Of a stretch of DNA of 64,000 nucleotides, positions 7,622 to 51,261 are shown in pieces. Position 1 is the first letter of the stretch. The number at the start of each line of letters is the position of its first letter. Origin of the DNA: Clostridia bacterium (GTDB lineage Bacteria; Bacillota; Clostridia; Oscillospirales; CAG-272). A model generated the notes under the pieces. That model was not told the origin of the DNA. It searched no databases and worked only from the letters and a program-made list of their open reading frames with translations. Both the position numbers and the translations under genes were made by a program. The stretch covers positions 91,890-155,889 of the forward strand of contig JAQYLJ010000067.1 of NCBI GenBank assembly GCA_028720145.1, written 5' to 3'.

Positions 7622-7650
7622 TTGCAATTTTGGTAAAAACGTGGAATAAT
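7622..7650 (+). promoter_or_regulatory. SigA-type promoter candidate for the giant lipoprotein gene
   Basis: TTGCAA (7622-7627), 17-nt spacer, AATAAT (7645-7650) preceded by TGg (extended -10-like). It lies in an AT-rich island 37 nt upstream of the ATG. Confidence 0.4.
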
Positions 7651-7686
7651 ATTATTAATTTTTTATTTTTTATGAGGAGGTCAACC

Positions 7687-17088: not shown

Positions 17089-17137
17089 TCATTCCTCTTT
17101 CGTCATACGCATAAGGAAACCGTAAATACGGTTTTCG

Positions 17138-17170
17138 CCCCCGTCGGTTTCCCGACGGGGGTATTTTTTT
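17138..17170 (+). terminator. Strong rho-independent terminator after the giant gene
   Basis: CCCCCGTCGG (17138-17147), loop TTTC, CCGACGGGGG (17152-17161), then TATTTTTTT. Confidence 0.8.
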
Positions 17171-17264: not shown

Positions 17265-17293
17265 TTTACAATTTTATTAAAAAGTGCTATATT
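17265..17293 (+). promoter_or_regulatory. SigA-type promoter candidate for the MoxR/vWA-LRR operon
   Basis: TTTACA (17265-17270), 17-nt spacer, TATATT (17288-17293) in an AT-rich island downstream of the terminator. Confidence 0.45.
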
Positions 17294-17386
17294 ATATTAT
17301 AATTATCTAAAATAGGGCGATTGGTCGGCATTTTCCGAAAAAACGGGGGAGATGCCTCACCAAAGACTGAAACAAGGGGGCCTCTT

Positions 17387-18463
17387 ATGGGCAAACAAAA
17401 AAATGGGGAAAAGCCCGTCACGGAAGCGGAAAGACTGCTCAAACAGTATCGCTCCCGTCTCGCAGCGGAGGGGTGGATCAAGTCCGCACTCTGCGGGGTG
17501 TCCGTCGGGTTTGCGCTGAATACGATTTACGCGGTCATCTGCTTGGTGTTCGGCATCAAGATGTTTTGGGTAGGCGTCCTTCTCTTTTTACTGGGGACAG
17601 CCACCACGCCCCTCATGTACTTTTTGCGGTTTCGGAATACCACCCGTCAGGTGGCGTCCCGCGTCGATATGCTCGGGCTTGAAGAGAGAGTGCTGACGAT
17701 GACACAGTTTGAAAGTGACGACAGTTTCATGGCGCGCCGCCAAAGAGAAGATACCGTTGCGGCACTCAAAAAGGTCAACGCATCACTGATCAAATTTGCG
17801 ATTTCCGTGCCGCTGATTGTTCTCTGCGTCACGACTTTCGTGTTGAGCGCGACGGCGACGACCGCCAATGCGCTGGTGGATAAGTCGCTCATCGCCATCA
17901 TCGATGAAGCGAAAGAGGAAACGCCCGCCTCCTACTACGCGATTACATACGGCGTAAAGGATAGTCAAGGCGGCAGGGTTGAGGGGGAACTCACGCAGAC
18001 GGTCCAAGCCGGATCGGCGACCACCCCCGTGCAGGCTATCGCGGATGACGGATACGTTTTCGTCGGCTGGACGGACGGATATGAGCAGGCGTACCGCATC
18101 GACACGGAGGTAGACGGCAACATCACCGCGAAAGCCATCTTCGTTCCCATTGATGAGAACGATATCCTCGAAGAAGAGGATGACAAAGCGGGAGAACCGG
18201 ACTCGTCCGATAAGTCGGGGGGCGGTCAGGAAAACGGACAACCGCAGCCGAGTGATCCGGAGGACGGCGACGGAGAAGGCAACGGCGGCGGCGCGGGAGG
18301 ATCCTCTGCTCCGAGTAACCAGGTCATCGACGGGCAGACCTTCTACGGCAACGAATACGGTAACAGTCTGTCCGACGCACAGGATGCCATGAATGCAGGG
18401 ACCGATCTCACAGGCGGACAGACCGGCACGATAGGCGACTACTTCAACAATATCGCCAAATAA
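17387..18463 (+). CDS. Multi-pass membrane protein with a Listeria-Bacteroides repeat ectodomain and a G/D/E-rich tail
   Basis: AAGGGGG precedes ATG 17387. Three hydrophobic helices, then YYAITYGVKDSQGG...DDGYVFVGWTDGYE...ITAKAIF, then an acidic/Gly-rich low-complexity tail. Confidence 0.75.
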   Translation: MGKQKNGEKPVTEAERLLKQYRSRLAAEGWIKSALCGVSVGFALNTIYAVICLVFGIKMFWVGVLLFLLGTATTPLMYFLRFRNTTRQVASRVDMLGLEERVLTMTQFESDDSFMARRQREDTVAALKKVNASLIKFAISVPLIVLCVTTFVLSATATTANALVDKSLIAIIDEAKEETPASYYAITYGVKDSQGGRVEGELTQTVQAGSATTPVQAIADDGYVFVGWTDGYEQAYRIDTEVDGNITAKAIFVPIDENDILEEEDDKAGEPDSSDKSGGGQENGQPQPSDPEDGDGEGNGGGAGGSSAPSNQVIDGQTFYGNEYGNSLSDAQDAMNAGTDLTGGQTGTIGDYFNNIAK

Positions 18464-18509
18464 TAGGCATACAACAGAATTTCTTAAAGACGAAAAAGGG
18501 AATATCGAA

Positions 18510-19550
18510 ATGGTTACAGAAGAAAGCATCCAACAGTTCAGCGCACAGTGCGCGCGCATTTTTGAAGAGACCCGCAAGGATATGATCGGGCAGGAGGATG
18601 TCGTGAGAAACACGATCATTGCCTTGATCGCAGGAGGAAACGTCCTGCTTGAAGGGGTGCCCGGGGTCGGTAAAACAAGACTTGTCAGAACGCTCAGCCG
18701 CGTGTTTGATCTTCCCTTTTCCCGCATTCAGTTCACTCCCGACCTGATGCCCGCGGACGTCACGGGGACCAACATCATCACCAAGGATGAAAACGGGAAA
18801 TCCACCTTCCGCTTCGAGCCGGGTCCGATTTTCGCCAACTTGATTCTGGCGGACGAAATCAACCGTGCGACCCCGAAGACCCAGTCCGCACTGCTGGAGG
18901 CCATGCAGGAGCATACCGTGACTGTCATGGGTGTCTCTCGGAAGATGAAGGAACCCTTCTTCGTCCTCGCAACGCAGAACCCCGTCGAGCAGGACGGCAC
19001 CTATCCGCTGCCCGAGGCACAGATGGACCGCTTTATGTTCAAGTTGGTGGTCGACAATCCCTCGCTCGAAGATTTGAAGGGAATTGTCACCATGACGCAA
19101 AAGACCATGGGTGAGGTCGCGAATGCCGCCTGCAACGCACAACAGCTGCTCGAGATGCGGGAGACGGCGAACCAGATACCCGTCGCGGATGAAGTCCTCG
19201 ACTTCGCCATGATGATCATCGCCGCGACCCAGCCCGACAGTGCGCACGCCTCCGAGGCGGCAAAGTCCTATATTCGTTTGGGTTCCTCTCCGCGTGGCGG
19301 GCAGGCGCTGATCTCCGCCGCAAAGGTGCTGGCACTGATGAACGGCAGATTCAATGTGTCCTATTCGGATGTCGCGTCGCTGGCGTTCCCGGTACTGCGT
19401 CATCGTTTGAAGATGAACTTTGAGGCAATCGCGGAATGCGTCTCGCCCGACTCGGTCATTCGCATGATTGTGGAAGAGGTCGCGAAGAGATGCAAGGTGC
19501 ACCTGGACGCCTCGGTATTTCAGAATGTCATTCGGGGAGAAAGCAAGTAA
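18510..19550 (+). CDS. MoxR-family AAA+ ATPase
   Basis: Walker A LLEGVPGVGKT, Walker B ILADEINRATPKTQSALLEAMQE, and the characteristic FSRIQFTPDLMPADVTG segment of AAA_3/MoxR. Confidence 0.92.
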   Translation: MVTEESIQQFSAQCARIFEETRKDMIGQEDVVRNTIIALIAGGNVLLEGVPGVGKTRLVRTLSRVFDLPFSRIQFTPDLMPADVTGTNIITKDENGKSTFRFEPGPIFANLILADEINRATPKTQSALLEAMQEHTVTVMGVSRKMKEPFFVLATQNPVEQDGTYPLPEAQMDRFMFKLVVDNPSLEDLKGIVTMTQKTMGEVANAACNAQQLLEMRETANQIPVADEVLDFAMMIIAATQPDSAHASEAAKSYIRLGSSPRGGQALISAAKVLALMNGRFNVSYSDVASLAFPVLRHRLKMNFEAIAECVSPDSVIRMIVEEVAKRCKVHLDASVFQNVIRGESK

Positions 19551-19556
19551 AAACGG

Positions 19557-20456
19557 ATGAAACCTTCGTATTTGAACGACGCGTTTTTCAGTCGGTTAGA
19601 GGCGCTTGCGTTTAATCTCCGCAAGGATCTCGGCGGATACTTCGGCGGGAAGCACCTGGTCAATACCTATGGGCAGACCGTCGAATTTGCCGATTACCGA
19701 GAATATATGCTGGGGGACGATATTCGCCGCATCGACTGGAATCTATACAGCCGTTTCGAGAAGTATTTTATCAAGTTGTTCACCGATGAGAGGCAGATGC
19801 ACGTGCAGATCTATATCGACTGCTCCGGCTCCATGGGGAAAGTCAATCCCGAAAAGGGGGCATATGCCATCGGGGTCGCCGCCGCGATGGGGTATCTCGC
19901 CATTCACAACATGGACAAAGTGTCCTATCATCTGATTCGGGGGAATAAAGCCGAAAATCCGTTCGGTACCATTGTGGGGAAGACCGCGTTCTTCCGTGCG
20001 ATGAAAACGCTGGATCAGATCGAGTTTGACGGTGAGGCCGCCATATCGGATGCCATCATCAAAAACCCGAATACCGGGACGGGTGACGGGCTTTCGGTGA
20101 TCATCTCCGACTATTTCTCAAACGACGACTGGAAAAAAGGGGTCGACTATCTTGTCTACAAGAAAAAGCAGATCCTGCTCATGCAGGTCTTTTCTCCCGA
20201 CGAACTCGACCCGACCTATACAGACAGAATCAATTTGATTGACGCGGAAGCCGTGGATATGGCGGATGGGCGCAACATGAAGCTTCGCATCAACAAATCC
20301 ATGCAACTGGCGTTCCGAGAGGCGGTCACCGCCTTTTATAAAGATATCGAGACTTTCGCAAAAAAGCGCGGCGCCGCCTTCATCGCCCTGGACTGCGAAA
20401 AGCCGATTGAACGACAACTTTTTGCCAAACTGATGAAACAAGGTACCGTATCGTGA
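19557..20456 (+). CDS. DUF58 family protein (vWA-like, MoxR partner)
   Basis: EFADYREYMLGDDIRRIDWNLYSR...IYIDCSGSM (DxSxS) is the typical DUF58 core. It starts 6 nt after moxR. Confidence 0.85.
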   Translation: MKPSYLNDAFFSRLEALAFNLRKDLGGYFGGKHLVNTYGQTVEFADYREYMLGDDIRRIDWNLYSRFEKYFIKLFTDERQMHVQIYIDCSGSMGKVNPEKGAYAIGVAAAMGYLAIHNMDKVSYHLIRGNKAENPFGTIVGKTAFFRAMKTLDQIEFDGEAAISDAIIKNPNTGTGDGLSVIISDYFSNDDWKKGVDYLVYKKKQILLMQVFSPDELDPTYTDRINLIDAEAVDMADGRNMKLRINKSMQLAFREAVTAFYKDIETFAKKRGAAFIALDCEKPIERQLFAKLMKQGTVS

Positions 20457-22459
20457 GATTACTCCTTCCATTAGGGCTCCTCGCTCTTGTCGGAATTCTC
20501 GTTCTCATCTTGATTTATATCATCAAGCCGAATTTCCAGCAAAAGTTGATTTCCACAACCTACATATGGAAACTGAGTCTGAAATTCAAAAAGCGCAAAA
20601 TACCGATCAGTAAATTGCGCAATATCCTGTTGGTGGCTTGCCAGGTGCTCATCATTACCGCCATCGCGTTCATTCTTTCCAAGACCGTACTTGTCTTGAA
20701 AGAGCAGATTTCCCAGCCGGAGGTCGTTCTGATCATTGACTCGTCTGCCAGTATGCGGACGGGCGATGAAAACACCAATCGGTATGCGCGGGCGGTGGAT
20801 GCCGCCGTCAAAGAGGCGGAGCGTACCTTTGACAGGGACGGGATCGTTTCCGTCATCCTCGCGGGGAGTGAGAACACTTACCTCGCGGAGCGCGCTTACG
20901 CGAACAGCCGCGAGCAGGTGGTCTCGGACATGACCGCTTTGCTCGATAACGGCACCCAATGCTCTTATGCTTCCGCCGACATGAATGCCGCGGTGACCAT
21001 GACGGATCGTGTTCTTTCGGTAAATCCCTCCGCGAAGATTTACCTCTATACCGATGAGACTTACGCGGATTTGTCCGAGAATATCAGCCTTGTGAATGTC
21101 GCCGAGGAAGAGGAATGGAACGCAGCCATTCTCAACGCGACGGCAATCTACGAGGATAACTTCTACACCTTCCGCGTGGAGGTCGCCTGCTACGGCAGAG
21201 ACAAAGATATTCCCGTGCGTCTGACTGTCAACGGGATCAACGCCACGAGCAGTGAGGACAAGAGTGCAGGGGATTTGACAATGGTGCAGACCGTACCCTG
21301 TATGAACGACGGCGTGTATACAGTCATCTTCAAGTATGTGCCGGAGGAAGAGAAAAAGGCATTTGTCGATTCTCTTGACGAAAACACGGTCTTCTACAAC
21401 ATTCCGATGGAAGACCGCGCGTACTCCTATCAGTCGGTACTCGTCAGCCTTGACGCAGATGACTCGCTGAAGCAGGACAATGCGTTCAGCATTTACGGCG
21501 GGCTGAAAGAGACGGTCAGAATCCAGTATTACAGTTCCGGGAGTGACGCGAGCACGGGCGGATCGCTCGGACCGAATGTATTTTTCCAGCAGGCGCTCGC
21601 GGCGCTGAAAAAGAATTATGCCGACAGATGGGATATCCAGATCACCGAGGTAAAAAAGGGGAATCCCTATGAGACGTCGGGATTTGACTTCTATATCTTC
21701 GAGCACGATATGCCGAGCAATTTGCCGACGGACGGCGTGGTGCTTCTCGCCGACCCGATGATGACGGCGCCGGCCGACTCCGGCATCCGTTTTGAGAAGA
21801 TCGTCGATATGAGCCGAAACAGCGTCTATCTCGCATCCGAGGAGACGCACCCCATTCTTGCCGGTACGACGCCGACCAATATCACGGTCAGTCGCTACGA
21901 CAAGGTGAGCTATGACCCGGCATATACCATGCTGCTCTCCTATGCGGGCGACCCCATGCTGCTCGTCAGAAACGACAGTGTAGCGCGCGTGGCGGTCATG
22001 TGCTTCTCGCTTCATTACTCCAATCTGCCGTTGCTCATTGACTTCCCGCTGATCATGTATAATATGTTCGGGTACTTTTTTCCGGCTACGGTAAATTCCA
22101 ATGCGTTCGAGACGGACGAGACGGTTTTGCTCAACTGCCGCGGCGAATCGCTGACCGTCAGTGACGGCACAAACGAGTACGTGTTTAACACGTTCCCCGC
22201 GAGTATGCAACTCAGCACCCCCGGCTCCTACACCGTTTCTCAAAAGACGTTCGCTAATAAAGAAGTGGTGGAGACCGTCTTTGTCAGAATGCCGCGTGCC
22301 GAGAGCGATATCTTCTCCGAGGAAGAGGCGCTCAGAAGTCCGTATTACACAATCGACGAGAGCGATTACTATAACGATGTGCTCCTGTATATCGCCGGTG
22401 CTTTGGTAGCGCTGCTGATGCTGGAATGGTATCTGCAGCACAAAGAGAGCAGTATTTAA
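20453..22459 (+). CDS. BatA-N-terminal-domain / vWA membrane protein
   Basis: N-terminal double-TM LLLPLGLLALVGILVLILIYIIKP..., MIDAS-like LIIDSSASM, and a C-terminal TM (LLYIAGALVALLMLEWY). GTG 20453 overlaps the upstream TGA. Confidence 0.8.
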   Translation: MRLLLPLGLLALVGILVLILIYIIKPNFQQKLISTTYIWKLSLKFKKRKIPISKLRNILLVACQVLIITAIAFILSKTVLVLKEQISQPEVVLIIDSSASMRTGDENTNRYARAVDAAVKEAERTFDRDGIVSVILAGSENTYLAERAYANSREQVVSDMTALLDNGTQCSYASADMNAAVTMTDRVLSVNPSAKIYLYTDETYADLSENISLVNVAEEEEWNAAILNATAIYEDNFYTFRVEVACYGRDKDIPVRLTVNGINATSSEDKSAGDLTMVQTVPCMNDGVYTVIFKYVPEEEKKAFVDSLDENTVFYNIPMEDRAYSYQSVLVSLDADDSLKQDNAFSIYGGLKETVRIQYYSSGSDASTGGSLGPNVFFQQALAALKKNYADRWDIQITEVKKGNPYETSGFDFYIFEHDMPSNLPTDGVVLLADPMMTAPADSGIRFEKIVDMSRNSVYLASEETHPILAGTTPTNITVSRYDKVSYDPAYTMLLSYAGDPMLLVRNDSVARVAVMCFSLHYSNLPLLIDFPLIMYNMFGYFFPATVNSNAFETDETVLLNCRGESLTVSDGTNEYVFNTFPASMQLSTPGSYTVSQKTFANKEVVETVFVRMPRAESDIFSEEEALRSPYYTIDESDYYNDVLLYIAGALVALLMLEWYLQHKESSI

Positions 22460-22471
22460 GGAGGCGGAACA

Positions 22472-25351
22472 ATGGCACATTTCAGAATACATTTTTCATA
22501 TCCGCTACTCCTTCTCGTCTTTCTGCTCGGTCTCGGATTGACGGTGCTTCTGTATTTCCGTCTTTCCAAGAAGTACAGAAAAAACAGAAACCGCGTGACC
22601 TCCATCGTGTTGCACCTCATTGTGTTTGCGCTTGCGGTTCTGACCCTGGCGGGAACCGTGTTTACCTACGAGATCCCAAATGAGGACAACCAGATTATTC
22701 TGCTTGTAGATGTCTCCGATACGGAGGAACAGTCCCGCGAGGCAAGAGACAATTTCGTGAGGACCGTTCTCGATATGGGGCAGTACGACGGGTTCAGCAT
22801 CGGGATCGTCACCTTCGGCTTCAGTCAGGTGTATGCCGTCGAGATGACGAACAAGATCTCGGTCGATAAAATGATGGACCTCTATTTGGCGGCGGAACAA
22901 CCCGACACCACGGCGACGGATATCGCCGCCGCACTGACCTATGCATCCTCTCTCTTCACCAATCCCGAGGCGGCACGCATCGTGCTCGTCACGGACGGAA
23001 AAGAAACCGACGAGGAGGCGGCGACGGTCATCCGCACGGTCAGTGCAAAGGGGATCGGCGTGGATGTCGCGAACATCCCGTCCTCGTTCAGCGGTGCCGA
23101 TATGCAATTGGTCGGGACCGTCCTGCCGGATTACCATGTTTCTCCCGGCGTCAGTTGCCCCATCGCAGTCACACTGCACGCAAGCGGCGCGGCGGAGGCC
23201 AAAGTGGAGTTTTACGACAACGGCACATTGGTGTCGTCGCAAACCGTGACCACTTCTGCGGGAGCACAGAATGTCACGTTCGACCACACCTTCTCGGGGG
23301 CAGGCTTGCACGCGCTCTCTTTCCGACTCCTGACAGGGGATGACCTGCTCTCGGAAAACAACACCTATTACACATATATGAACCTGGAGAACTTCGACAA
23401 GATACTTGTTCTGGAACACAAGGACGGGGAATCCGAGAAGTTGAAACAACTCCTCACCACGGGAGACAGTGTTTACGACGTGACGGTCAAGAACATCACG
23501 AGTGACACGACCCTACCGACGACCTCGGAAGAACTACGCGTATACGACCAGGTGATTCTGAACAATATCGCGAGAGCCGATATGCCCGAGGGTTTTGAAC
23601 AGATGCTCCAAGAGTATGTCAGCAAGTACGGCGGCGGACTCTTTACCGTCGGCGGTGCCGACAAGGTGGAGGGGGCGGTAGGCGAAGAGGACCGCTATGT
23701 CGCCCACTCTTACAACCGCGAGGATATGTGGGGAAGCATTTACCAGGAGATGCTGCCGGTTCAGGCAATCAAGTATACGCCTCCGATTGCCCTCATGGTG
23801 ATTGTGGACCGTTCCGGGTCCATGAGCGCGGTGGACGGTTCCACGGGGGGTACCTACTACGATTTGGCACTGTCCGGTGCGGCAGGGTGCCTGGAAGCAC
23901 TGACCGAGCGCGACTACTTTGGTCTGATGACACTGGACAGCAACTACGAGACGCTGCTTGCTCTCACGCCGCGTTCACAGGATGCGAAGATCAAGAAAGC
24001 CATCAACGATGCCCGTGAATTGGGGACGACGGGCGGTACCGTATTCCCCGAAGCGATCGACCGTGCGAGCCGCGCGCTTCTTTCGCTCAATGTGGCGAGA
24101 CGCCACGTCATCATTGTCACCGACGGTCTGGTACCGAAGGAACAGGAAGCCGAGTATCTCGATTATATCAGACAGTTCCACAACAACAACGGCATTACTT
24201 ATTCGGTTGTCGGGATCGGCGTCTCTGCGGGGTCCGCTGCCGCCACGCAGATGCAGGTTGCCTGCACCGCGGGCGGAGGGAGACTCTACACCATCACCGA
24301 CGGGACCGAGATGATCAGTTCCATGCGCGAGGATCTCCGCGTCCCCGAAATCAAGGAAGTCAACTACGAAACCTATCATCCGACCGTACGCAACACCCTG
24401 TCCTCTCTTCTGAACGGGATTGAACTCACGGTAACGGAGGACGGCAGACAGACTCCGAAAATGACGGCGACACTGGACGGCTTCTTCGGCGTCAAGGTCA
24501 AGGAGGGGGCGGACCTCGTCCTGATGGGGGATTACGATGTCCCCATTTACGCACAGTGGAAGTATGGGAAGGGCACCGTCGGCAGTTTCATGTGCGATTT
24601 GAACGGCACATGGTCTTCGGATTTCCTCACCGCAACAGAGGAGAACAAGGGCTCCGGCATACAGTTCATCCGAAATGTGGTGAACGCCATCATGCCGATG
24701 GAATCCATCCGTGAGAATCCGATCACCGTGAGTATCTCCCAAGACAACTATACGAATCAGCTCAGTATTTTCACAGCACTTGGCGAGGGAGAGCGCGTTG
24801 TCGGGTATCTCAAGAATATGACAGATCCCATGGCGGTGGGGATTCCGCTGGATACCGTCACGGCGGCGCCGGAGGGAACAAGGCTCGAAGACCTTGCTTG
24901 CTACATCACCTCGCCGCTGAACGCATCCAACAATTACAGCCGTTGCGGCTTTGTCATGAAACAGGCGGGCGTGTATGAACTCGCACTCCAAAAGGTCGAT
25001 GCGGACGGAAACGTGCTCGCCGAATATCAAGCATATCGGTCGTTCTCCTTCTCGGAGGAATACGATTTGGCAGAAGTCCCGACGAACGCGGAACTCGTCG
25101 CGTCTCTTTCCGCCCTCGCGAAGAACGGCGGCGGAGCGCTCATCGCGAATAACGGAGACCCCGTCGAGGTGTTCGCGAATTTCGTCACTGCCATTCAGAA
25201 GTCCTTCGACCCGCGGTATGTGTTTATGATTCTGGCACTGATTCTGTTCCTCGCAGACATTGCCGTTCGTAAATTCAAGTTCAAATGGCCGCACGAGATT
25301 ATTCGTGCACACCGCGAAAAGGTACGGAACAAGAAAGGGGGATCGGAATGA
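22472..25351 (+). CDS. Membrane-anchored double-vWA protein with a central GATase1-like (DUF1355-like) domain
   Basis: AAGGAGG (22458-22464) precedes ATG 22472. N-terminal TM pair; vWA 1 (ILLVDVSDT); ILVLEHKDGES...VILNNI...GGGLFTVGG; vWA 2 (MVIVDRSGSM); C-terminal TM (FMILALILFLADIAV). Confidence 0.8.
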   Translation: MAHFRIHFSYPLLLLVFLLGLGLTVLLYFRLSKKYRKNRNRVTSIVLHLIVFALAVLTLAGTVFTYEIPNEDNQIILLVDVSDTEEQSREARDNFVRTVLDMGQYDGFSIGIVTFGFSQVYAVEMTNKISVDKMMDLYLAAEQPDTTATDIAAALTYASSLFTNPEAARIVLVTDGKETDEEAATVIRTVSAKGIGVDVANIPSSFSGADMQLVGTVLPDYHVSPGVSCPIAVTLHASGAAEAKVEFYDNGTLVSSQTVTTSAGAQNVTFDHTFSGAGLHALSFRLLTGDDLLSENNTYYTYMNLENFDKILVLEHKDGESEKLKQLLTTGDSVYDVTVKNITSDTTLPTTSEELRVYDQVILNNIARADMPEGFEQMLQEYVSKYGGGLFTVGGADKVEGAVGEEDRYVAHSYNREDMWGSIYQEMLPVQAIKYTPPIALMVIVDRSGSMSAVDGSTGGTYYDLALSGAAGCLEALTERDYFGLMTLDSNYETLLALTPRSQDAKIKKAINDARELGTTGGTVFPEAIDRASRALLSLNVARRHVIIVTDGLVPKEQEAEYLDYIRQFHNNNGITYSVVGIGVSAGSAAATQMQVACTAGGGRLYTITDGTEMISSMREDLRVPEIKEVNYETYHPTVRNTLSSLLNGIELTVTEDGRQTPKMTATLDGFFGVKVKEGADLVLMGDYDVPIYAQWKYGKGTVGSFMCDLNGTWSSDFLTATEENKGSGIQFIRNVVNAIMPMESIRENPITVSISQDNYTNQLSIFTALGEGERVVGYLKNMTDPMAVGIPLDTVTAAPEGTRLEDLACYITSPLNASNNYSRCGFVMKQAGVYELALQKVDADGNVLAEYQAYRSFSFSEEYDLAEVPTNAELVASLSALAKNGGGALIANNGDPVEVFANFVTAIQKSFDPRYVFMILALILFLADIAVRKFKFKWPHEIIRAHREKVRNKKGGSE

Positions 25352-28122
25352 ACAAGCGTATTTTGACACTGTTCTTCGCCGTTCTGGCGATGCTGCTCCT
25401 CCTCTTGCTGACCTCCTGCTCGGAAGAACTGGCTGCGCCCGAAGAATTAAAGATTGATGACGACAATCAGCTCTCTTGGGCGAGCGTGGAATCCGCGCGC
25501 ATTTACACGGTCGAGATTCAGAATGTGAACGGCGGCGACGCCGTCAGGAAGACGACGCGGCAGACAAACTATTCTCTTTCCGACCTCACAGTTGGGGACT
25601 ATGAGATCCGTGTCATGGCGACGGGCGGAGCGGAGAACGAACTGACCTCCGATTGGTCGTCGGCGCTATCGTTCCACCGCGATTATGAATCCGGTTGTGT
25701 CTACGAGCTATATAACGGCAACAGTGAATATCGGATCACCGGGGCGGGAAGCGCGAACGATACGGTCCTTATCGAGGGGACCTACCGTGGGAAACCCGTG
25801 ACCGCGATTGCGGACAATGCATTTAAGGGGAACCGCAGCATCGTGAATGTGGTCCTCGGAGAAAACATCCGCAGCATCGGGGAGAATGCGTTTTATAACT
25901 GCCCGCAGCTGCAATCGGTTTCTCTGCCCGAAAGTCTGACGTCCGTCGGGATATCCGCTTTTCAGGGATGCCGCGCGCTTGTCGCGGTAAATATCCCGTC
26001 AAAACTGACCGCCATCCCGGACTATTGCTTCACTTATTGCCGTGCGCTTGCGTCGGTTCGATTGAGTGACAATATGAAGACCATCGGGGAATCCGCTTTT
26101 GCGGGCACCGCGCTGACCGCGGTGGAGATACCCGACGGCACGGAGTATATCGGACCCTACGCCTTTTCCGCCATGAACGATCTCACGGAAGTGCATATCG
26201 GACGCGGTGTGAAGACAATCTGCGAGTATGCGTTCAGCGAGAACCCGCTGCTTGCGTCGGTCGTGTTCGCGCAAGACAGCGTACTGGATACCATCGGGGA
26301 CCGCTGTTTTGTGAATGACAAGCTGCTCGGGGGCATCGAACTTCCGTCCGGCATGACGGATATCGGAGATCGCTGTTTCTACGGTTGTACCGAGTTTTCA
26401 TCGGTGACCATTCCCGACAGTGTGACGCATATCGGCTCCATGGCATTCAATGCGACGAAGCTCTACGCGGATTCCACGTCGGATTTCGTCTACGCCGATC
26501 GGTGGCTGGTTGCCGTCAAGAATCTGAACGCATATAAAAAAATCGACGCTACGCATATCAAAGACAACACGGTCGGTATCAGTGACACCTGCTTTTATCA
26601 GGCACAGTTGCTGGAATCCGTCACCTTGCCCGCTTCCGTTAAGACGGTCGGGAAATTTGCGTTCCAAAGTTGTCCCGAACTTGCCGAATTTAAGGCGGGC
26701 GCCTCGCTTCTGCGTATTCAGTACGCCGCGTTCAATGCTTGCGAAAAACTCTATAAACTGAATTTGACAAACAGTTCGCTCACCGAGATTGACGATTTCG
26801 CGTTTTACGGATGCAAGGCATTGGACAATAACGCACTCACGCCCATCATTCCGAAAAGCGTTACGCGCATCGGGCTGCGGGCATTTGAGGGGACGCGCCT
26901 TTGGTCGAACCCGGACGAGAACAATATCATCTATGCCGGGACATGGGTCGTCGGGTACAAAGACGGCGCCACCATCGGCGAGGCGACACTGAAGGATACG
27001 GTGACGGGAATCGCGGATTACGCCTTTTCCGACTGCGACTCTCTTGTGACGCTCGGGAATCTGACCCGTTGTCTCTATATCGGAGAGGGGGCGTTCTATA
27101 ATTGCACCCAGCTCATGTCGGTTGCGCTCCATTCTCGCCTGACGACACTACCGGATTATGTGTTCTACAAATGCTCCAATCTGCTGAATATCGCATTTCC
27201 CACGATGCTGGAGTCGATCGGCAGATCCGCCTTCTATAAGTGTTCCTCCATTTTTGAACTGGACTTCTCCGAGACCTATGCGTTTCGGTCCATCGGCGAT
27301 TACGCATTTTACGGATGCACCAACCTGAAAACCGTCGATTTCGGAGAAAATCTCACGGATATCGGCACGAACACGTTTTATCGTTGCAAGTCACTGAAAT
27401 CCGTCTCCATTCCGAACACGCTCCAAGTGATTCCCGACGATGCCTTCGCTTTCTGCTCGGTTTTGGAGTCGGTTGTGCTCGGCTCGGGGGTAGAACATAT
27501 CGGCAGCCGTGCATTTTATAAGTGCGAGATGCTGAATGCGCTTTGTTTACCCGATGCAGTCAAGACCGTTGGGGATAACGCGTTTTACAAGTGCAGCGGT
27601 ATCAAGACACTGGAAATCGGAAACGCGGTTCAATCCATCGGAGACTACGCCTTCTACGGACTCGAACAGATCGAAACGCTGCGCCTGCCCGCGACACTGA
27701 CCTTGATCGGGAAATATGCCTTCAAGGGGGCTGCGGCACTGAAAACGCTGATCATCCCCGCGAGCGTGACCGAAATCCGCGTGAACGCGTTTTACGGTTG
27801 CTATCAAGCGACCTTCTATATCGAGGAGGGAGCCGACACACATGACTGGAACCTCCGTTGGAATTCTTCCAACCGTCCCGTGGTCTTCGGTGTTCATCTC
27901 TCGGATACAGGCGATTATGTCGTGTCCGTTACGGTCAATGCCGACACGGTGAAAAACGATAAGAACTTGACGGATGCCATCAAGCCGATCGCCTCTCCTG
28001 AGCGCGTCGGGTATACCTTCGCCGGTTGGGTACGGCAGGACGGGACCGCGGTTGGCACCGAGGAACTTTCCGCACAATCGGAGGGGACCGCTTTGACGGC
28101 AGTCTGGACGCCTCTTTCATAG
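25348..28122 (+). CDS. Surface lipoprotein (924 aa): FN3-like module, BspA-type LRR array, C-terminal Listeria-Bacteroides repeat
   Basis: ATG 25348 overlaps the upstream TGA (ATGA). Lipobox LLLLLTSC; LSWASVESARIYTVEI; many IP.SVT.IG..AF..C units; C-terminus VGYTFAGWVRQDG...LTAVW. Confidence 0.88.
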   Translation: MNKRILTLFFAVLAMLLLLLLTSCSEELAAPEELKIDDDNQLSWASVESARIYTVEIQNVNGGDAVRKTTRQTNYSLSDLTVGDYEIRVMATGGAENELTSDWSSALSFHRDYESGCVYELYNGNSEYRITGAGSANDTVLIEGTYRGKPVTAIADNAFKGNRSIVNVVLGENIRSIGENAFYNCPQLQSVSLPESLTSVGISAFQGCRALVAVNIPSKLTAIPDYCFTYCRALASVRLSDNMKTIGESAFAGTALTAVEIPDGTEYIGPYAFSAMNDLTEVHIGRGVKTICEYAFSENPLLASVVFAQDSVLDTIGDRCFVNDKLLGGIELPSGMTDIGDRCFYGCTEFSSVTIPDSVTHIGSMAFNATKLYADSTSDFVYADRWLVAVKNLNAYKKIDATHIKDNTVGISDTCFYQAQLLESVTLPASVKTVGKFAFQSCPELAEFKAGASLLRIQYAAFNACEKLYKLNLTNSSLTEIDDFAFYGCKALDNNALTPIIPKSVTRIGLRAFEGTRLWSNPDENNIIYAGTWVVGYKDGATIGEATLKDTVTGIADYAFSDCDSLVTLGNLTRCLYIGEGAFYNCTQLMSVALHSRLTTLPDYVFYKCSNLLNIAFPTMLESIGRSAFYKCSSIFELDFSETYAFRSIGDYAFYGCTNLKTVDFGENLTDIGTNTFYRCKSLKSVSIPNTLQVIPDDAFAFCSVLESVVLGSGVEHIGSRAFYKCEMLNALCLPDAVKTVGDNAFYKCSGIKTLEIGNAVQSIGDYAFYGLEQIETLRLPATLTLIGKYAFKGAAALKTLIIPASVTEIRVNAFYGCYQATFYIEEGADTHDWNLRWNSSNRPVVFGVHLSDTGDYVVSVTVNADTVKNDKNLTDAIKPIASPERVGYTFAGWVRQDGTAVGTEELSAQSEGTALTAVWTPLS
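25705..27830 (+). repeat. BspA-type LRR array (protein-level)
   Basis: Units such as LPESLTSVGISAFQGCRALVAVNIPSKLTAIPDYCF recur through this span. Confidence 0.8.
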
Positions 28123-28188
28123 AGGATTCCCATACGCGGGAAAACGATGATTCGATTGATTTTCTATCTTTGAGGTAACGAGAGAATT

Positions 28189-31100
28189 ATGAAAAAGACA
28201 CATTTGCTCCTGCTGGTAAGCATACTGATTCTGCTATGCGGACTTTTCGCCGCTTGCGGGAAAACCGAACAGGTCAGCCTTACCATGGTCACCGGCGACG
28301 GGACTGCTGACACCGTCGTGCAAATCGAAAAGGGCGCACCGTACACCCTGACGGAACCCACCCGCGAGGGATATGCCTTCGCAGGCTGGTACACCGCACA
28401 GGATTATTCCGGCACCCCTGTGACCTCTATCACCCCCGATGCGGACACCACCGTTTACGCTAAGTGGAACAAACTCTATCAGCTGACACTGGATCCGAAC
28501 GGCGGTACCCTTGCGACGACGCGTGTCATGCTCTCCGCCGGAGATCGCATCTCCGAGAAAATCGCGGGGTTGATTCCCGAAAAGGCGGATTGCCGTTTCG
28601 GTACTTGGCTCCTCGACGGAGAACCCCTTGACGCGGATGCGGTGATGGGCAACGAGGATATCACGCTTGTCGCGAAGTATCAGGTCAAGTATACCGTTGA
28701 AATTTTGACTCAGAACGAAACACTGGACGGATACACGCCCGCGCCCGAGTTGCTCGTGGAGTACGGCTACATCGGCGAGGCGGTAGTCCCCTCGCATACC
28801 GTCACGGGGTTCAAAGCAGTGACGAAGTCGGACAGTGTGACCAGACTCGTCCTTTCGGAGAATGCGTCAGAGAATGCGTTCAAGCTGTATTTCGACCGCG
28901 AGAGTTGCACCCTGACATTTGTCTCCAATTATCCGGACGGCTCTGTCAACGAGAGTAAGAAGCAGACGCTGATCTACGGCGTCAAGACAAAATTCCATCC
29001 CGAATCCTTCCAAAAAGAGGGGTATTATCTTGAGGGTTGGGCACTCAGTGCAAACGGCGAGATGGAATATTCCTCTCACATCATGGATGACTCGCTCTTC
29101 AATGCGACTCCTGCCGCCGTAGAAGATATCACCGCCACCGGAAACATTACGCTGTATGCCGTTTGGAGCAAGGGGTATACCGATCTGTTCGGCGGGTCGG
29201 ACATTATGTATGTTTCCAAAGGCGAGGAGAATACCGTTTACCTTTGCCGCGGCGGTTGTTTCTTCAAGGGAAGCCTTGTCAAGAACAAAACCATTGTGTT
29301 CCCGGATGCCAATGCGGATTTCCCCGAGGCAGTGCTCAATTCCGATGGGGAAACCTTCCTTTATAAGAATGCCGACCGCGTTGGGATTACCGCCACCCTG
29401 TACGAAATGGGTGCGGGTAAGGGGTTGAACGAACTCATCAAACTCGTGTTCGACGACGAAAACGGTGTGACCTACTCCGAAAAAGAGAGCGCGGAAGCCA
29501 CGACGACCGTCGATTCCAAGGGCACCTATGTGTTCGATGAGGACGGTAACTTCGTCACGACCTTCACCTCCGGTCCTCTTGACGGGAAGACACTGGTGAT
29601 TGCCGTCGGTACCGTGCGAGTCGGCAGCGAAAGAAGAACGGCATTCCAGGTGAGAAACGAGGAGGATATCAACCTCGGGCGGATTCTCCACTTTGTTGTC
29701 AGCGACAATACCATTGTCGTCCATACCGACGATGACGGCAAAATCATCGGCGACCTGACACTGAACGGATTCGGAATTGCTTCGTATAACGCAGGCTCTT
29801 CCGTCAGCCAATATTACTATACCTACGATGCCGAAACACGCATCATCACCCTGATGAGTTCGCAGGGCAGTGTTGCGGGCGTGCTCCGCCTCATGGAATT
29901 GAACGGTGAGTTGGGGTACATGATTTACAATGCCTCGATGGATGTCACCTACACGCTGGAAGACGGCTCCACCTTGGCGCTGGACGGTATTCAGACCGCC
30001 ACCTACACGCAGGACGGCGTTTCCCACAGCGGCTTCTTCACCACCGAGACCTCTGCCTTCGGCGGCACGATTCTCACCTTTACCGAGGGAGACGTGACCT
30101 ACAAATTCATGATCACGGTCAAAACGCAAGAGGTGTTGGTGGATCCCACCGATCCCGATAGCGGGACGACCTCGACTAAGGTCACGGTCGTTGAGAGAAA
30201 ACCGGCTGCCTACGCGGAATACTATTATCGCGATAGCGAGGGTACCTACTACGGTCCGCTCTTCGTATTCGAGACTGCCGATCGTGCAACGGTGACCGTT
30301 TACGGGTATAACCAAGAAAAGCAGTATCACAAGATCGCCGCAGGTACAATGACATGGGATGCGACCACGGGTCTTTATCTGCTCACCGTTACCGAGACCT
30401 TCACATTGCCCGAGGATGCCAGCCCCGTATTTACAGAGCCGGTCGACTTCTCCAAGGTGAAGACTTGCGCGCTGATGCTGGACTCCACCCTCACGCAGTA
30501 CAGGATTCATTTCTGGTTCAATTACAGCGACGGTGTGGAAACCGTGGACAAAACCCAAGTCCTGACAGGCAGTAACGGCGGGAAACTGACGCTCGTCGCG
30601 GGCTTTGCCATCTATCAGATCAACGGCAAGACCGAGATAGGTACTTACCGTCAGAACGGCAGCGTACTCACCGCGACATTCACAGACCGCAACCTCTATT
30701 TCACACTGGATACCGAAAACGGAACCTATACCGTTTCGACCGCAACCACCGAGACCTATTACGAGGTCGGGAAAGACGGCAAGGTATCGCAGACGAGTTA
30801 TTTGACGATCGATCCTGTGAGCGGCACGGTCTCCTACTGTGTCGTCACGGTCGACGGAGAGACTCAGTCCGTCACCACGTATCCGGGTACACTGACGCGT
30901 ACGGGCAGGACCTCACTCACGGGCTTCTCCATCTACGCCTTTGAGACGAATGAAAAAGCGGCGGATTTCGATGCTCCTCTCTATGCGTTTGAATTGATTG
31001 AACGCTCTATTTTGACAGGAAACTACTTCTTCCGCTATGACGCATCGTATGCAGGGCAGTTTGTTTCCACCAATACGGCGAACGGCGTTCTGACGCTGGA

Positions 31101-33240
31101 CGGCTTCGGGTTCGCTGCCACCTACTCCGACGGAGAAGGGCGCGAGATCATGGGTATGTATCAGAAGAACGGGGACGAAGTGGCAATCTCTTCTGACACG
31201 ACCTACTACTTCCACCTGTCCGAAAACACCTGCGCTTTGCGCGGCAGTGAGTACGGAAAAGTCTATCTGATGATCGACAATCAGGTGTTTGACGGACTAT
31301 ATGCCGAACTCGACGGGTTGGGGAATGCAACCATCTTCCGCATGGTTTTGAGCGGGGAAGAGTATGTGAGAGAACCTGTCGACGAAACCGCTACTTACAC
31401 GGTGAACGGCGACAGAGCCACGATTCATTACCGTGTCGGAGCTGAGGAACATGAAATCGTCGCCAAGTTCGGAACCATGACGAGCGGAAGCAATACTTAC
31501 AATGCACTGCATACCATTCATGACGAAGTGGTCTATTCGTATGTGAACGAAGACGACTGGTCGGTTCTGCGGCTGAACGGTGACGGCACCGCGAATAAGT
31601 ATTTGACAGACGGTTCTGTGGAGACGGGCACCTATTCGCTGGTGACCGAGAGCCTGCTTTACTATGTCAATACAAGCGGCTCGGAGGCATACATCTATGT
31701 CTACGATACCGAGCGCGGCACGGCAACGCCCCGCACCTATACGGCGGTTGCGTATTATACGCCCGAACTGGATTCTCTCCTGTTCTCCGAATACGGTTTC
31801 GCGATTTTCAATAACAGTGTCAGATACTACTACACGGTCGATGAGAATGAGAATGTGACTCTCTACTATCTGGATGAGTCTTCAAGCGAAAAGAATCGTT
31901 ACGGCTATGTTGAGGAGGACTTCGGGGAGCTCTCCGAGACGAAAGTATACGGTAGCAAGACCTATTACAAGAACGACGGCTTTGCCATCAGCTTTGTTCG
32001 TGCCGAAGCGACGAAGGACTATTATCCCGTACGCGTAGATGCCGACAATACACTGCCGACCTTGACCCTGACATTCGCGCCGACGGGCGGCGAGACTTTC
32101 TCGGTCAGCGGCTATGTGATGATCGGAGACGAGAGTTACGAATGCACGGTGGTCAGAGAGATCGTCGACGAAGTCTCCCGTATGTATTTTAGAATCGGGA
32201 GCTATTACTTCTATATCACGATCAACTATCAGGGCGACGGTGTCGGAAGCGACATCAAGAGCACCTATGAGGTCATCGGACTCTCCAACATCAAAACGAT
32301 GCCCTCGTACACCTATCTCTACTATTTGTACTATATCTATTCGATGATGGGATCGAATTACGCGAGCCAGTTTACCAACACCTACGGTACGGTGGCTCTG
32401 CATACGGTCTACAAAGAGGACGGTTCCGTCGAGAAGAGCTATATGAACGCCACCTTCGGCAAGTCCACAACGCTCATGGAGAGCGACGGAACCCTGATCG
32501 AAACGCTGGAAGAAGTGCCGGTCTCCTCTCTGGGGAACAACTTCTACCGTGCGGTCTTTGAGGGTGCAGACGGGTATACATATACCATGATTTTGGTGGC
32601 GCGTCCGGTGTCTGTTTTCAGCACCTACGGGTACAGCATTTACGCTCTGCTTCGTGAAGAGGCGGTTCCTGCCAATGACGGGTTTGTCGTGACTGTCAAC
32701 CGCGTGATTGCCTCTGATATCGGGATGTCCGCAGGGAGTTACTTCTCCTTTGAGCTGACTAAAGACGGTGTAGAAGTCCCCGCCTCCAATGTGATGATGA
32801 ATGATGGCAAACTGTACTACATTGTCAGAGAAACAGGCGAGGGTGCAAAGACCTACTACTATCTGCTGACGCTCGTCGAAAAGACCTCCGGCAGCATAGA
32901 AGAAGGTACCGAGGACACCACGGAGGAGCAAGCGAAACCTCTGCCGCTCTATGACAGCGCAACGGTCACGACGATCGAAGCGACCACGGCGTATGCGGCA
33001 GACGGAAAGAGTTTTGTGGATATTCTCCCCGATAACAAGATTCTGCTTATGTCGCTTGCGACGGAGAAAGATGGGGAGACAGTCAATACCGTCGTGCTGA
33101 TTGCGGAATGTACTTATGATGCGGAGACAGGCGTATACACGCTGAAAACAAGCGATGATAAGACATATACCGTGTCGGTCACGGACGGTGTCGCAACCAT
33201 CACGGAAACTACCGATACAACGACCGAGGAGCAGGCATAA
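28189..33240 (+). CDS. Orphan surface lipoprotein (1683 aa): N-terminal Listeria-Bacteroides repeats followed by about 1350 aa of degenerate beta-rich modules
   Basis: Lipobox LCGLFAAC. EGYAFAGWYTAQDY...TVYAKW and EGYYLEGWALSANG...ITLYAVW. The remainder has no motif I recognise except the recurrent L.L(D/N)G.G.A.Y...G.Y pattern. Confidence 0.85.
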   Translation: MKKTHLLLLVSILILLCGLFAACGKTEQVSLTMVTGDGTADTVVQIEKGAPYTLTEPTREGYAFAGWYTAQDYSGTPVTSITPDADTTVYAKWNKLYQLTLDPNGGTLATTRVMLSAGDRISEKIAGLIPEKADCRFGTWLLDGEPLDADAVMGNEDITLVAKYQVKYTVEILTQNETLDGYTPAPELLVEYGYIGEAVVPSHTVTGFKAVTKSDSVTRLVLSENASENAFKLYFDRESCTLTFVSNYPDGSVNESKKQTLIYGVKTKFHPESFQKEGYYLEGWALSANGEMEYSSHIMDDSLFNATPAAVEDITATGNITLYAVWSKGYTDLFGGSDIMYVSKGEENTVYLCRGGCFFKGSLVKNKTIVFPDANADFPEAVLNSDGETFLYKNADRVGITATLYEMGAGKGLNELIKLVFDDENGVTYSEKESAEATTTVDSKGTYVFDEDGNFVTTFTSGPLDGKTLVIAVGTVRVGSERRTAFQVRNEEDINLGRILHFVVSDNTIVVHTDDDGKIIGDLTLNGFGIASYNAGSSVSQYYYTYDAETRIITLMSSQGSVAGVLRLMELNGELGYMIYNASMDVTYTLEDGSTLALDGIQTATYTQDGVSHSGFFTTETSAFGGTILTFTEGDVTYKFMITVKTQEVLVDPTDPDSGTTSTKVTVVERKPAAYAEYYYRDSEGTYYGPLFVFETADRATVTVYGYNQEKQYHKIAAGTMTWDATTGLYLLTVTETFTLPEDASPVFTEPVDFSKVKTCALMLDSTLTQYRIHFWFNYSDGVETVDKTQVLTGSNGGKLTLVAGFAIYQINGKTEIGTYRQNGSVLTATFTDRNLYFTLDTENGTYTVSTATTETYYEVGKDGKVSQTSYLTIDPVSGTVSYCVVTVDGETQSVTTYPGTLTRTGRTSLTGFSIYAFETNEKAADFDAPLYAFELIERSILTGNYFFRYDASYAGQFVSTNTANGVLTLDGFGFAATYSDGEGREIMGMYQKNGDEVAISSDTTYYFHLSENTCALRGSEYGKVYLMIDNQVFDGLYAELDGLGNATIFRMVLSGEEYVREPVDETATYTVNGDRATIHYRVGAEEHEIVAKFGTMTSGSNTYNALHTIHDEVVYSYVNEDDWSVLRLNGDGTANKYLTDGSVETGTYSLVTESLLYYVNTSGSEAYIYVYDTERGTATPRTYTAVAYYTPELDSLLFSEYGFAIFNNSVRYYYTVDENENVTLYYLDESSSEKNRYGYVEEDFGELSETKVYGSKTYYKNDGFAISFVRAEATKDYYPVRVDADNTLPTLTLTFAPTGGETFSVSGYVMIGDESYECTVVREIVDEVSRMYFRIGSYYFYITINYQGDGVGSDIKSTYEVIGLSNIKTMPSYTYLYYLYYIYSMMGSNYASQFTNTYGTVALHTVYKEDGSVEKSYMNATFGKSTTLMESDGTLIETLEEVPVSSLGNNFYRAVFEGADGYTYTMILVARPVSVFSTYGYSIYALLREEAVPANDGFVVTVNRVIASDIGMSAGSYFSFELTKDGVEVPASNVMMNDGKLYYIVRETGEGAKTYYYLLTLVEKTSGSIEEGTEDTTEEQAKPLPLYDSATVTTIEATTAYAADGKSFVDILPDNKILLMSLATEKDGETVNTVVLIAECTYDAETGVYTLKTSDDKTYTVSVTDGVATITETTDTTTEEQA

Positions 33241-33258
33241 TCTGCTTCCGAATCACAC

Positions 33259-33290
33259 GCGGGCTGTCCTTTGGGGCAGCCCGCATTTTT
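33259..33290 (+). terminator. Rho-independent terminator ending the plus-strand operon
   Basis: GCGGGCTGTCC / GGGCAGCCCGC stem (one G-U pair), loop TTTG, followed by ATTTTT. Confidence 0.6.
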
Positions 33291-33295: not shown

Positions 33296-33326
33296 ACGAA
33301 AAGACCTCCCGAGGAGTCGGGAGGTC
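33296..33326 (-). terminator. Rho-independent terminator ending the minus-strand block
   Basis: GACCTCCCGA (33303-33312) pairs with TCGGGAGGTC (33317-33326), loop GGAG. On the minus strand it is followed by TTTTCGTT. Confidence 0.6.
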
Positions 33327-43536: not shown

Positions 43537-43590
43537 TTTGTAATCCTTATCGTAATTCAAAAACAGTTTCGCGAAGAAAACGATATGACG

Positions 43591-44922: not shown

Positions 44923-44933
<11 letters not shown>
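43866..44933 (-). CDS. oppF: Oligopeptide ABC transporter ATP-binding protein
   Basis: Walker A GESGCGKTT, signature FSGGQRQRICIARAL, Walker B FVVCDEPVSALD, and the C-terminal oligopeptide-type Cys motif (CPPGCKFHTRC). ATG 44933 gives MENNNDILLQVEHL. Confidence 0.9.
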
Positions 44934-46233
<1,300 letters not shown>

Positions 46234-46251
46234 AATACAGCCTAGCCTCCG

Positions 46252-47499: not shown

Positions 47500-47513
47500 T
47501 GTGGCTCTCCTCC

Positions 47514-51219: not shown

Positions 51220-51261
51220 ATTATTATATCTCCTTCAGATAATAATCGGGTAGGAAAGGGT

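Follow-up and report, generated by a model that had tools for sequence, protein, structure and literature searches.

A MoxR-DUF58-vWA cassette co-conserved with giant LRR and Flg_new surface proteins in gut Clostridia

This study analyzed a 64,000-nucleotide (nt) stretch of a Clostridia bacterium genome (contig JAQYLJ010000067.1, positions 91,890 to 155,889; hereafter, the window), in which a Bat-like cassette encoding a MoxR ATPase, a DUF58 protein, and two membrane proteins with von Willebrand factor A (vWA) domains is located among genes for giant surface proteins with leucine-rich repeats (LRRs) or Flg_new repeats. All open reading frame (ORF), motif, and terminator coordinates are positions within the window. 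A functional link between the cassette and these surface proteins is strongly supported by sequence comparison, because their adjacency recurs across relatives and the vWA domains are predicted to lie in the compartment of the lipoproteins. We assign a probability of approximately 0.5 to the reading that the genes encode one dedicated cell-envelope apparatus, in which MoxR and DUF58 would drive the ATP-dependent assembly or remodeling of a surface complex. The host of this putative apparatus is a monoderm gut Clostridium, which we describe as Christensenellales-like.

Few bacterial gene modules that still lack a defined substrate are as widespread as the MoxR-DUF58-BatA/vWA cassettes, and the phenotypes attributed to Bat-type systems (aerotolerance, envelope integrity, and virulence) are indirect. 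The fixation of such a cassette to a few orthologous surface proteins over deep divergence provides a short, testable list of candidate clients. The cluster also represents a Firmicute counterpart, without kinase or FHA components, to the newly described actinobacterial epibiont sensing and response (Esr) pathway, and the findings suggest that the pairing of a giant surface protein with MoxR/vWA proteins may be a general design. The carriers are abundant, uncultured, Christensenellales-like gut bacteria, whose largely uncharacterized surface biology, including LRR adhesins and an envelope protease, may influence how they interact with the host.

Gene content of the cluster

A preliminary description of this DNA, made from its letters alone, had proposed a unit of seven same-strand genes (here termed g1 to g7) with spacings of 46, 6, -4, 12, -4, and 66 nt. 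All seven ORFs were found on the plus strand at 17387-33240 with the sizes it had given, and the spacings were reproduced with g1 starting at ATG 17387 and g6 at ATG 25348. The mechanical ORF of g1 opens at TTG 17321; the ATG at 17387 is preceded by the ribosome-binding site (RBS) AAGGGGG. Independent gene calls in public assemblies of the same organism gave products of 668, 959, 924, and 1684 amino acids (aa), and the 4-nt g5/g6 overlap was also present in those assemblies.

The first gene, g1 (17387-18463), encodes a 358-aa protein with three transmembrane segments and Pfam Flg_new/Flg_new_2 matches, which bears out the earlier suggestion that the leading membrane protein shares the repeat type of the surface proteins. 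It is followed by g2 (18510-19550), encoding a MoxR-proper AAA+ ATPase (AAA_3, 4e-62, 208 bits, with AAA_lid_2), and g3 (19557-20456), encoding a vWA-like DUF58 protein (6e-27). The 668-aa product of g4 (20453-22459) comprises a BatA_N transmembrane hairpin (5.6e-6), a VWA_2 domain, a large ectodomain, and a C-terminal transmembrane segment. The 959-aa product of g5 (22472-25351) comprises a transmembrane hairpin, two VWA domains, a Rossmann/GATase1-like domain, beta domains, and a C-terminal transmembrane segment. The predicted lipoproteins of the unit are encoded by g6 (25348-28122; 924 aa, with an FN3-like N-terminus, six LRR_5 matches, and a C-terminal Flg_new) and g7 (28189-33240; 1683 aa, with Flg_new as the sole Pfam domain). 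All domains named in the preliminary description were recovered with Pfam and NCBIfam, but GATase1_like in g5 scored below its threshold (21 bits against a cut-off of 27).

Pfam matches also identified three more giants of the LRR_5/Flg_new kind around g1-g7. The upstream gene g0 (7537-17088, plus strand; a 3183-aa ORF with a likely start at ATG 7687) encodes a giant putative lipoprotein with 23 LRR_5 stretches and Flg_new. Downstream, on the minus strand, d1 (33354-36608; likely start 36509, 1051 aa) encodes another LRR_5/Flg_new putative lipoprotein, and d2 (36499-43560) encodes a protein of approximately 2345 aa with a signal peptide, an S8 subtilase domain carrying a PA insert, fn3_5, LRR_5, and a C-terminal transmembrane anchor. 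The Flg_new module is common to g0, g1, g6, g7, and d1.

Conservation across relatives

The conservation of the cluster was determined through three anchor searches of GTDB r232, with one genome per species, by using the g5 protein, a g7 alignment, and a g5 alignment with a 35%-identical family member as its first sequence. A g5 relative was encoded at 442 genomic places. Approximately 200 distinct loci were fetched with 10-kb flanks, and the window proteins were mapped onto them by tblastn; the listing of the g5 protein family comprised the best 120 matches, all at least 46% identical. All loci were from metagenome-assembled genomes (MAGs) of gut, rumen, or caecum Clostridia, and the meaningful carrier names included Candidatus Borkfalkia, Gallimonas, Scatosoma, Neoclostridium, Pumilibacteraceae, and Christensenellaceae. 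No cultured carrier was present among the records listed, the titles of which all denoted MAGs.

The results revealed that the genes for MoxR, DUF58, g4, g5, g6, and g7 shared a single strand and kept their order, with end-to-end alignments, in essentially every locus long enough. The adjacency is thus not confined to this genome, a point on which the preliminary description had proposed a gene-neighborhood survey. The product of g1 was present at 28%-56% identity in all loci with enough flank. The MoxR orthologs were 65%-94% identical, and the full-length, collinear g7 orthologs were 26%-73% identical. The gene order was kept at the lowest identities observed, which were 65%-70% for MoxR, approximately 55% for DUF58, 30%-35% for g4 and g5, approximately 33% for g6, and 26%-30% for g7.

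In 72 of 72 cases, the best match of the protein at the g6 position was the g6 of the window and not g0, d1, or d2, and the score ratio was never below 2.07. The orthologs also had narrow length ranges (914-1036 aa for g6 and 1633-1761 aa for g7). These findings argue that g6 and g7 are true orthologs rather than random BspA paralogs. Chance adjacency in an LRR_5-rich region was likewise considered and was ruled out by the orthology and synteny across relatives.

A giant plus-strand ORF was located upstream of g1 in every locus with a full 10-kb flank; it aligned to g0 over approximately 1500 aa at 27%-59% identity and ran beyond the flank. In many of the more distant loci, a d2 ortholog directly followed g7 on the same strand after a short gap. 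The d2 orthologs were 41%-47% identical over the protease part and collinear to approximately residue 2320 at 33%, and the genes beyond g7 or d2 varied among loci. Because the upstream g0 ortholog and the same-strand d2 ortholog recur in relatives, the ancestral cluster comprised g0, g1, MoxR, DUF58, g4, g5, g6, g7, and d2, that is, approximately 36 kb (7.5-43.5 kb of the window). The seven-gene unit of the preliminary description is real and conserved but too narrow, since the g0 and d2 orthologs belong to the conserved cluster.

Rearrangements and duplications

In the window and its closest relatives (L001 and L054), d1 and d2 are located on the minus strand after g7; d1 followed g7 only in close relatives. 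The lineage of the window thus carries a local inversion, because distant relatives (e.g., L011 and L087-L099) have the d2 ortholog behind g7 in the same orientation. In L017/L188, the MoxR-DUF58 pair was relocated to just after g7, and g1 then abutted g4, as it also did in L185.

In at least eight MAGs, the full cluster was present twice, on separate contigs and in deeply diverged form (L017/L201, L028/L210, L029/L207, L052/L182, L013/L171, L023/L102, L039/L131, and L055/L214), with identities between copies of 34%-51% for g5 and 27%-37% for g7. The first copy in the L017, L028, L029, and L052 pairs had no MoxR-DUF58 upstream of g4; MoxR-DUF58 was located after g7 in L017 and L028, and none was present within the fetched flank in L029 and L052. 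A copy of this type may share the ATPase of the other copy, or the two copies may derive from mixed bins. The linkage of the cassette with the surface proteins outlasts rearrangement and duplication of the whole cluster, and it also holds in a variant with two Flg_new giants.

This variant was observed in L145 (9992-27116), where g4-like and g5-like genes are convergent with two giants (1913 and 1749 aa) that begin with Flg_new repeats but lack LRR_5; the end of the locus was reached before any MoxR or DUF58 gene. The cluster was also observed on a complete 1.78-Mb chromosome (CP091718.1, "Oscillospiraceae bacterium nC33_bin.8"; L136), where its genes were fragmented in tblastn, probably because of long-read frameshift errors.

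Cytoplasmic proteins and membrane vWA proteins

MoxR (g2), which contains Walker A (GVPGVGKT) and Walker B (ILADE) motifs, and DUF58 (g3) are both predicted to be cytoplasmic because no transmembrane segment was found in any of their orthologs. The metal ion-dependent adhesion site (MIDAS) of g3 (DxSxS; D88, S90, and S92) was invariant among orthologs. Similarly, the MIDAS of g4 (D96/S98/S100) and that of the second vWA domain of g5 (D446/S448/S450) were invariant DxSxS motifs, and that of the first vWA domain of g5 (D80/S82/T84) was DxSxT/S among orthologs.

Both g4 and g5 encode proteins with three transmembrane segments. The loops between their first two segments had mean K+R counts of 9.4 and 6.5, respectively, and essentially zero D+E, and the C-terminal tail of g5 had a mean K+R of 8.8 and a conserved RKFKFKWPHE motif. 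According to the positive-inside rule, these K/R-rich, acid-free loops and the tail would be cytoplasmic, and the large vWA-bearing parts of both proteins are thus predicted to lie outside the cytoplasm, as the lipoproteins do. The preliminary description had left open whether all the vWA domains might be cytoplasmic, and the prediction for g4 and g5 is that they are not. The vWA domain of the BatA-like protein BB0173 of Borrelia has been demonstrated experimentally to be periplasmic.

The predicted cytoplasmic segments were the most conserved parts of the membrane proteins (0.80 for g4, 0.80 for the g5 loop, 0.92 for the RKFKFKWPHE tail, and 0.67 for g1), compared with 0.50-0.66 for the ectodomains of g4, g5, and g1. 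The g1 protein consists of a transmembrane hairpin, a conserved loop of approximately 45 aa, a third transmembrane segment, extracellular Flg_new, an acidic/Gly linker, and a C-terminal conserved motif (NQxIDGxTYYG...DYFxxIxK). The loop (RVDxLGLEERxLTMxELEGDxSYIAxRQREDA), which is predicted to be cytoplasmic, was its most conserved segment. This protein constitutes a separate family, of which clustering at the 50% level yielded more than 100 full-length representatives.

The AlphaFold model of g5 (predicted local distance difference test [pLDDT] score, 85) revealed a transmembrane hairpin, the first vWA domain, a beta-sandwich, a Rossmann-like domain, the second vWA domain, beta domains, and a C-terminal transmembrane segment. 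The Rossmann-like domain occupies the place of GATase1_like (PF07090), which is on record for many g5 orthologs. In Foldseek, the vWA domains superposed on BatB (3ibs; TMt 0.74) and on a Bacteroides fragilis aerotolerance-related protein (4jdu; 0.72), and the matches also included tandem-vWA proteins and extracellular adhesion-type vWA domains. The g4 protein is paralogous to g5 over its first approximately 400 aa (hhalign probability, 95%).

Surface proteins

On the basis of lipobox sequences identified by L-x-x-C pattern matching (g0, LVSC; g6, LTSC within LLTSC; g7, FAAC; and d1, LFSC), the g0, g6, g7, and d1 products are predicted to be membrane-tethered lipoproteins. The lipobox was retained in 69 of the 77 g6 orthologs and 59 of the 67 g7 orthologs. 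No LPXTG motif was found in g0, g6, g7, d1, or d2. The LRR_5 arrays of g0, g6, and d1 gave a partial NCBIfam HupY/LrrG match (7.5e-63) that was far below the cut-off, and the S8 catalytic triad of d2 is intact in sequence.

The g7 protein consists of N-terminal Flg_new repeats and an all-beta core of approximately 1350 aa without known relatives. Its residues 330-1500 were modeled as an all-beta, multi-module structure (pLDDT 86.5). A Foldseek comparison of the core with the PDB yielded only TM-scores of at most 0.11 (DDB1 propellers and Rhs/teneurin shells), and no fold was assigned; a profile search of PDB sequences returned the InlB B-repeat as the sole match. The preliminary description had called this protein an orphan. 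The core does lack known domains, but approximately 57 full-length homologs were found and orthologs were present in most fetched loci. In the protein search, the homologs were confined to this clade.

Residues 523-1140 of g7 also contain a weakly defined motif that recurs, L-x-L-[DN]-G-x-G-x-A-x-Y, with Y-rich strands after it (e.g., YYYTYD and YIYVYD). It resembles YD/Rhs-type beta-hairpin repeats; Pfam RHS_repeat gave no match, and the TM-scores with Rhs/teneurin structures were at most 0.08.

Transcription signals and gene junctions

The two strongest plus-strand terminators of the region flank g1-g7. The first, an intrinsic terminator at 17137-17162 with an 11-bp stem, nine GC pairs, and a run of seven T residues, follows g0; the second, also intrinsic, closes g1-g7 at 33259-33284 (11 pairs, nine GC) and is convergent with the intrinsic minus-strand terminator of d1 at 33303-33326. 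The hairpin and T-run of the g0 terminator were structurally retained in L008 and L054, where the sequence was not. The earlier statement that the unit contains no internal hairpin with a T-tract was upheld, in that the internal plus-strand terminator-like sites were weak (5-8 pairs) and were all located within coding sequence. The 66-nt g6-g7 spacer contains an RBS and neither a hairpin nor a T-run.

The promoter-like site proposed upstream of g1 (17265-17293, plus strand) consists of a -35 element TTTACA, a 17-nt spacer, and an extended -10 element TG-n-TATATT. Its consensus match alone was not significant (13 matches found against 12.2 expected), but the site was conserved across species: TTTACA and TGnTATAnT were invariant in six species, in which the surrounding intergenic DNA had a mean column identity of 43%.

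The gene junctions were compact across loci. The 4-nt g3/g4 overlap was present in 98% of loci, and the g4-g5 gaps were 0-18 nt. The g5-g6 gap had a median of 31 nt and was at most 100 nt in 92% of loci, with the two genes overlapping in 32%; in the window, the overlap is an ATGA start/stop. The median g6-g7 gap was 69 nt.

Comparison with known systems

The cluster most resembles the Bat operons (Bacteroides; Borrelia bb0170-bb0176, Leptospira bat, and Rhizobium RL3499-3502) in that a MoxR-proper gene is followed by DUF58, here after a 6-nt gap, and then by genes for two BatA_N-type MIDAS vWA membrane proteins with C-terminal transmembrane segments. The structural superposition of the g5 vWA domains (TMt 0.72-0.74) and a predicted topology like that of BB0173 add to this likeness. 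However, no TPR, SH3, or BatD match was found with Pfam or NCBIfam in the seven proteins or their neighbors that would indicate BatC/BatE (TPR) or BatD. The vWA proteins are also two to three times larger than those of Bat operons (668 and 959 aa) and contain an added beta-sandwich, a GATase1-like domain, and a second vWA domain. Moreover, the host is a monoderm Firmicute, and the three-transmembrane Flg_new protein that precedes the cassette and the orthologous giant lipoproteins that follow it occur in no described Bat operon.

The Esr and PFNA (pkb2-fn3-MoxR-duf58-tgm) clusters are the only described MoxR/vWA(DUF58) cases with a named giant surface partner. Both combine MoxR and vWA/DUF58 with a giant Sec-exported repeat surface protein without LPXTG, much as g0, g6, g7, and d2 flank the cassette and are conserved with it. 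By contrast, the Esr and PFNA clusters encode Ser/Thr kinases and a phosphatase, FHA proteins for output, a membrane-bound transglutaminase protein, and sensors built from Ig/FN3 and beta-propeller domains. The present cluster is distinguished by its pair of BatA-type vWA membrane proteins, by anchoring of the lipoprotein type, by LRR_5/Flg_new architectures, and by a subtilase. No transglutaminase, Ser/Thr kinase, or FHA protein was detected in the cluster or its scanned neighbors in the window.

In the yeaC-yeaD-yebA type of Bacillus subtilis, the MoxR-DUF58 pair likewise precedes a membrane protein whose ectodomain is large; the third gene is transglutaminase-like and not vWA, and there are no LRR or Flg_new partners. 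Among surface proteins, the LRR_5 arrays of g0, g6, and d1 resemble BspA-type adhesins (HupY/LrrG), and the S8-PA-fn3_5 order and intact triad of d2 resemble cell-envelope proteinases (PrtP/C5a-peptidase). Unlike those adhesins and proteinases, the proteins of this cluster have a lipobox or a C-terminal transmembrane anchor instead of LPXTG or S-layer domains, their genes are fixed in a MoxR/vWA cluster, and an LRR_5 array is joined to the protease in one protein. Judged from its gene content, the cluster shares the core Bat features but appears to be neither a ternary conflict system nor an Esr/PFNA cluster. No description of it was found in the searchable literature, including that on Christensenellales/BspA surface clusters.

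Proposed mechanism and alternative explanations

The reading of one envelope apparatus is favored because the cluster combines a conserved engine, predicted cytoplasmic segments more conserved than the ectodomains, fast-evolving orthologous surface proteins, and a shared Flg_new module. In the proposed mechanism, the engine would be formed by the MoxR-proper AAA+ ATPase and the MIDAS-bearing DUF58 adaptor in the cytoplasm. It would dock on the conserved cytoplasmic segments, namely, the g1 loop, the BatA_N loop of g4, and the loop and RKFKFKWPHE tail of g5. The ectodomains of g4 and g5, with three MIDAS-intact vWA domains, would sit on the outer face of the membrane, where they may bind, organize, or reshape the co-encoded g6, g7, g0, and d2 products, and the latter could together form an adhesion and proteolysis surface complex. 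The ATP-driven action would run from the inside to the outside. The preliminary description had proposed either a maturation, insertion, or remodeling system for LRR adhesins or the assembly of vWA proteins and LRR lipoproteins into one envelope complex, and the sequence evidence is compatible with both. A tentative elaboration, which we regard as possible although doubtful, is an integrin-like machine: with ATP as the energy source, MoxR and DUF58 would act across the membrane to change how the extracellular MIDAS vWA domains are folded or how tightly they bind (by inside-out signaling, outside-in signaling, or both) and thereby control an LRR/Flg_new adhesion-protease supercomplex. Such a machine would provide the first defined clients and a transmembrane logic for MoxR-DUF58-BatA cassettes.

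Several points weigh against the envelope apparatus. The co-transcription of g1-g7 and the contacts between the proteins are inferred from genomics, and the topology of g4 and g5 is a rule-based prediction. In 34% of relatives, more than 100 nt separate g6 from g7, enough to accommodate internal promoters; moreover, g0 has its own terminator and d1 and d2 are on the opposite strand in the window, and thus not all members are co-transcribed. To our knowledge, the manner in which a cytoplasmic AAA+ protein acts on ectodomains across the membrane is unexplained for every Bat-type system. Finally, co-regulation or a common genomic island, instead of a physical complex, could account for the conserved synteny.

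That last possibility can be stated as an alternative of its own, in which MoxR-DUF58-vWA-vWA would be a general Bat-like envelope-stress or homeostasis system and the LRR/Flg_new proteins would not be its clients. Its location in a stable island of surface-protein genes would then be due to the common regulation of envelope genes. Bat-like cassettes without LRR partners are described from many phyla in the literature, this region of the genome is rich in LRR_5/Flg_new genes, g0, d1, and d2 are separate transcription units in the window, and the paralogous copies in L052 and L029 have no MoxR/DUF58 within the fetched flank. Nevertheless, we consider this explanation unlikely. The g5 and g6 genes overlap by ATGA here and overlap in 32% of loci, with gaps of at most 100 nt in 92%; order and orthology are kept down to approximately 30% identity, whereas the genes past g7 or d2 vary; the whole set travels together on duplication or rearrangement; and g1, which has the same Flg_new repeat type, always accompanies the cassette.

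An Esr-like outside-in sensor, as an alternative to assembly or remodeling, also appears improbable, although possible. In such a sensor, the giant LRR/Flg_new proteins would detect host glycoproteins, epibionts, phage, or neighboring cells, and the signal would pass through the vWA proteins and g1 to DUF58/MoxR, with the response encoded elsewhere. There is precedent in Actinomycetales, where the giant Sec-secreted surface filament EsrA, which is encoded alongside MoxR, vWA, and transglutaminase proteins, is needed for the response to a Saccharibacteria epibiont, and, by gene content, in the PFNA cluster of Bifidobacterium, where an FN3 surface protein is linked with MoxR-DUF58-tgm. Ligand binding is a classic role of LRR and vWA domains, and the rapid divergence of the surface proteins (26%-73% identity for g7) relative to the highly conserved MoxR, DUF58, and cytoplasmic segments would be expected of variable sensors on a conserved transducer. 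However, no kinase, phosphatase, FHA protein, transcription factor, or effector was found in or next to the conserved block, nor was a transglutaminase. The orthologous surface proteins keep a constant length and architecture, unlike conflict sensors with their domain swapping, and a subtilase with an intact triad better fits a working surface complex.

The preliminary description had further raised a defense function, with the giants as effectors or decoys of a MoxR-vWA ternary anti-phage or conflict system. Such roles are known from the literature for other MoxR-vWA loci, and g2 has a secondary Pfam match to bpMoxR (2e-11), but AAA_3 far outscores it (208 against 44 bits) and the PADLOC matches reflected generic AAA similarity only. 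Neither Pfam nor NCBIfam revealed VMAP, a beta-propeller, or any effector domain such as a nuclease or toxin, and the cluster is a stable, vertically conserved clade core and not a patchy mobile island. The defense hypothesis thus received no support, and we regard it as highly improbable. The Arc pathway of Pseudomonas aeruginosa, whose MoxR/vWA cluster PA4317-23 is mechanistically uncharacterized, offers a weak analogy.

Other features of the window

Scans of the window for Rfam families and tRNAs identified none. Long stop-free antisense ORFs are located opposite g0 (9832-17013, minus strand, 2393 aa), g4 (20471-22492, minus strand, 673 aa), and d2 (36508-40236, plus strand, 1242 aa). Their translations are of low complexity and rich in Arg, Gly, and His, and they are most likely shadow ORFs, and not genes, arising from codon and repeat composition.

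The G+C-richest stretch of the second half of the window (53029-59091; 0.59-0.62 at 54-58 kb) contains long overlapping ORFs on both strands, the plus-strand candidates of which (684, 378, and 648 aa) had no Pfam match. The minus strand at 43866-52377 encodes an Opp-like ABC transporter that consists of two ATPases, a pair of permeases, and an SBP_bac_5 protein of unusual length (848 aa). A 371-aa protein comes next; it has a weak match to Flg_new and would be another surface protein with that repeat. Upstream of g0 are genes for a 576-aa Sel1-repeat protein (3644-5374, plus strand) and a protein resembling DpaA_N, the N-terminal domain of dipicolinate synthase subunit A (6020-6919, minus strand).

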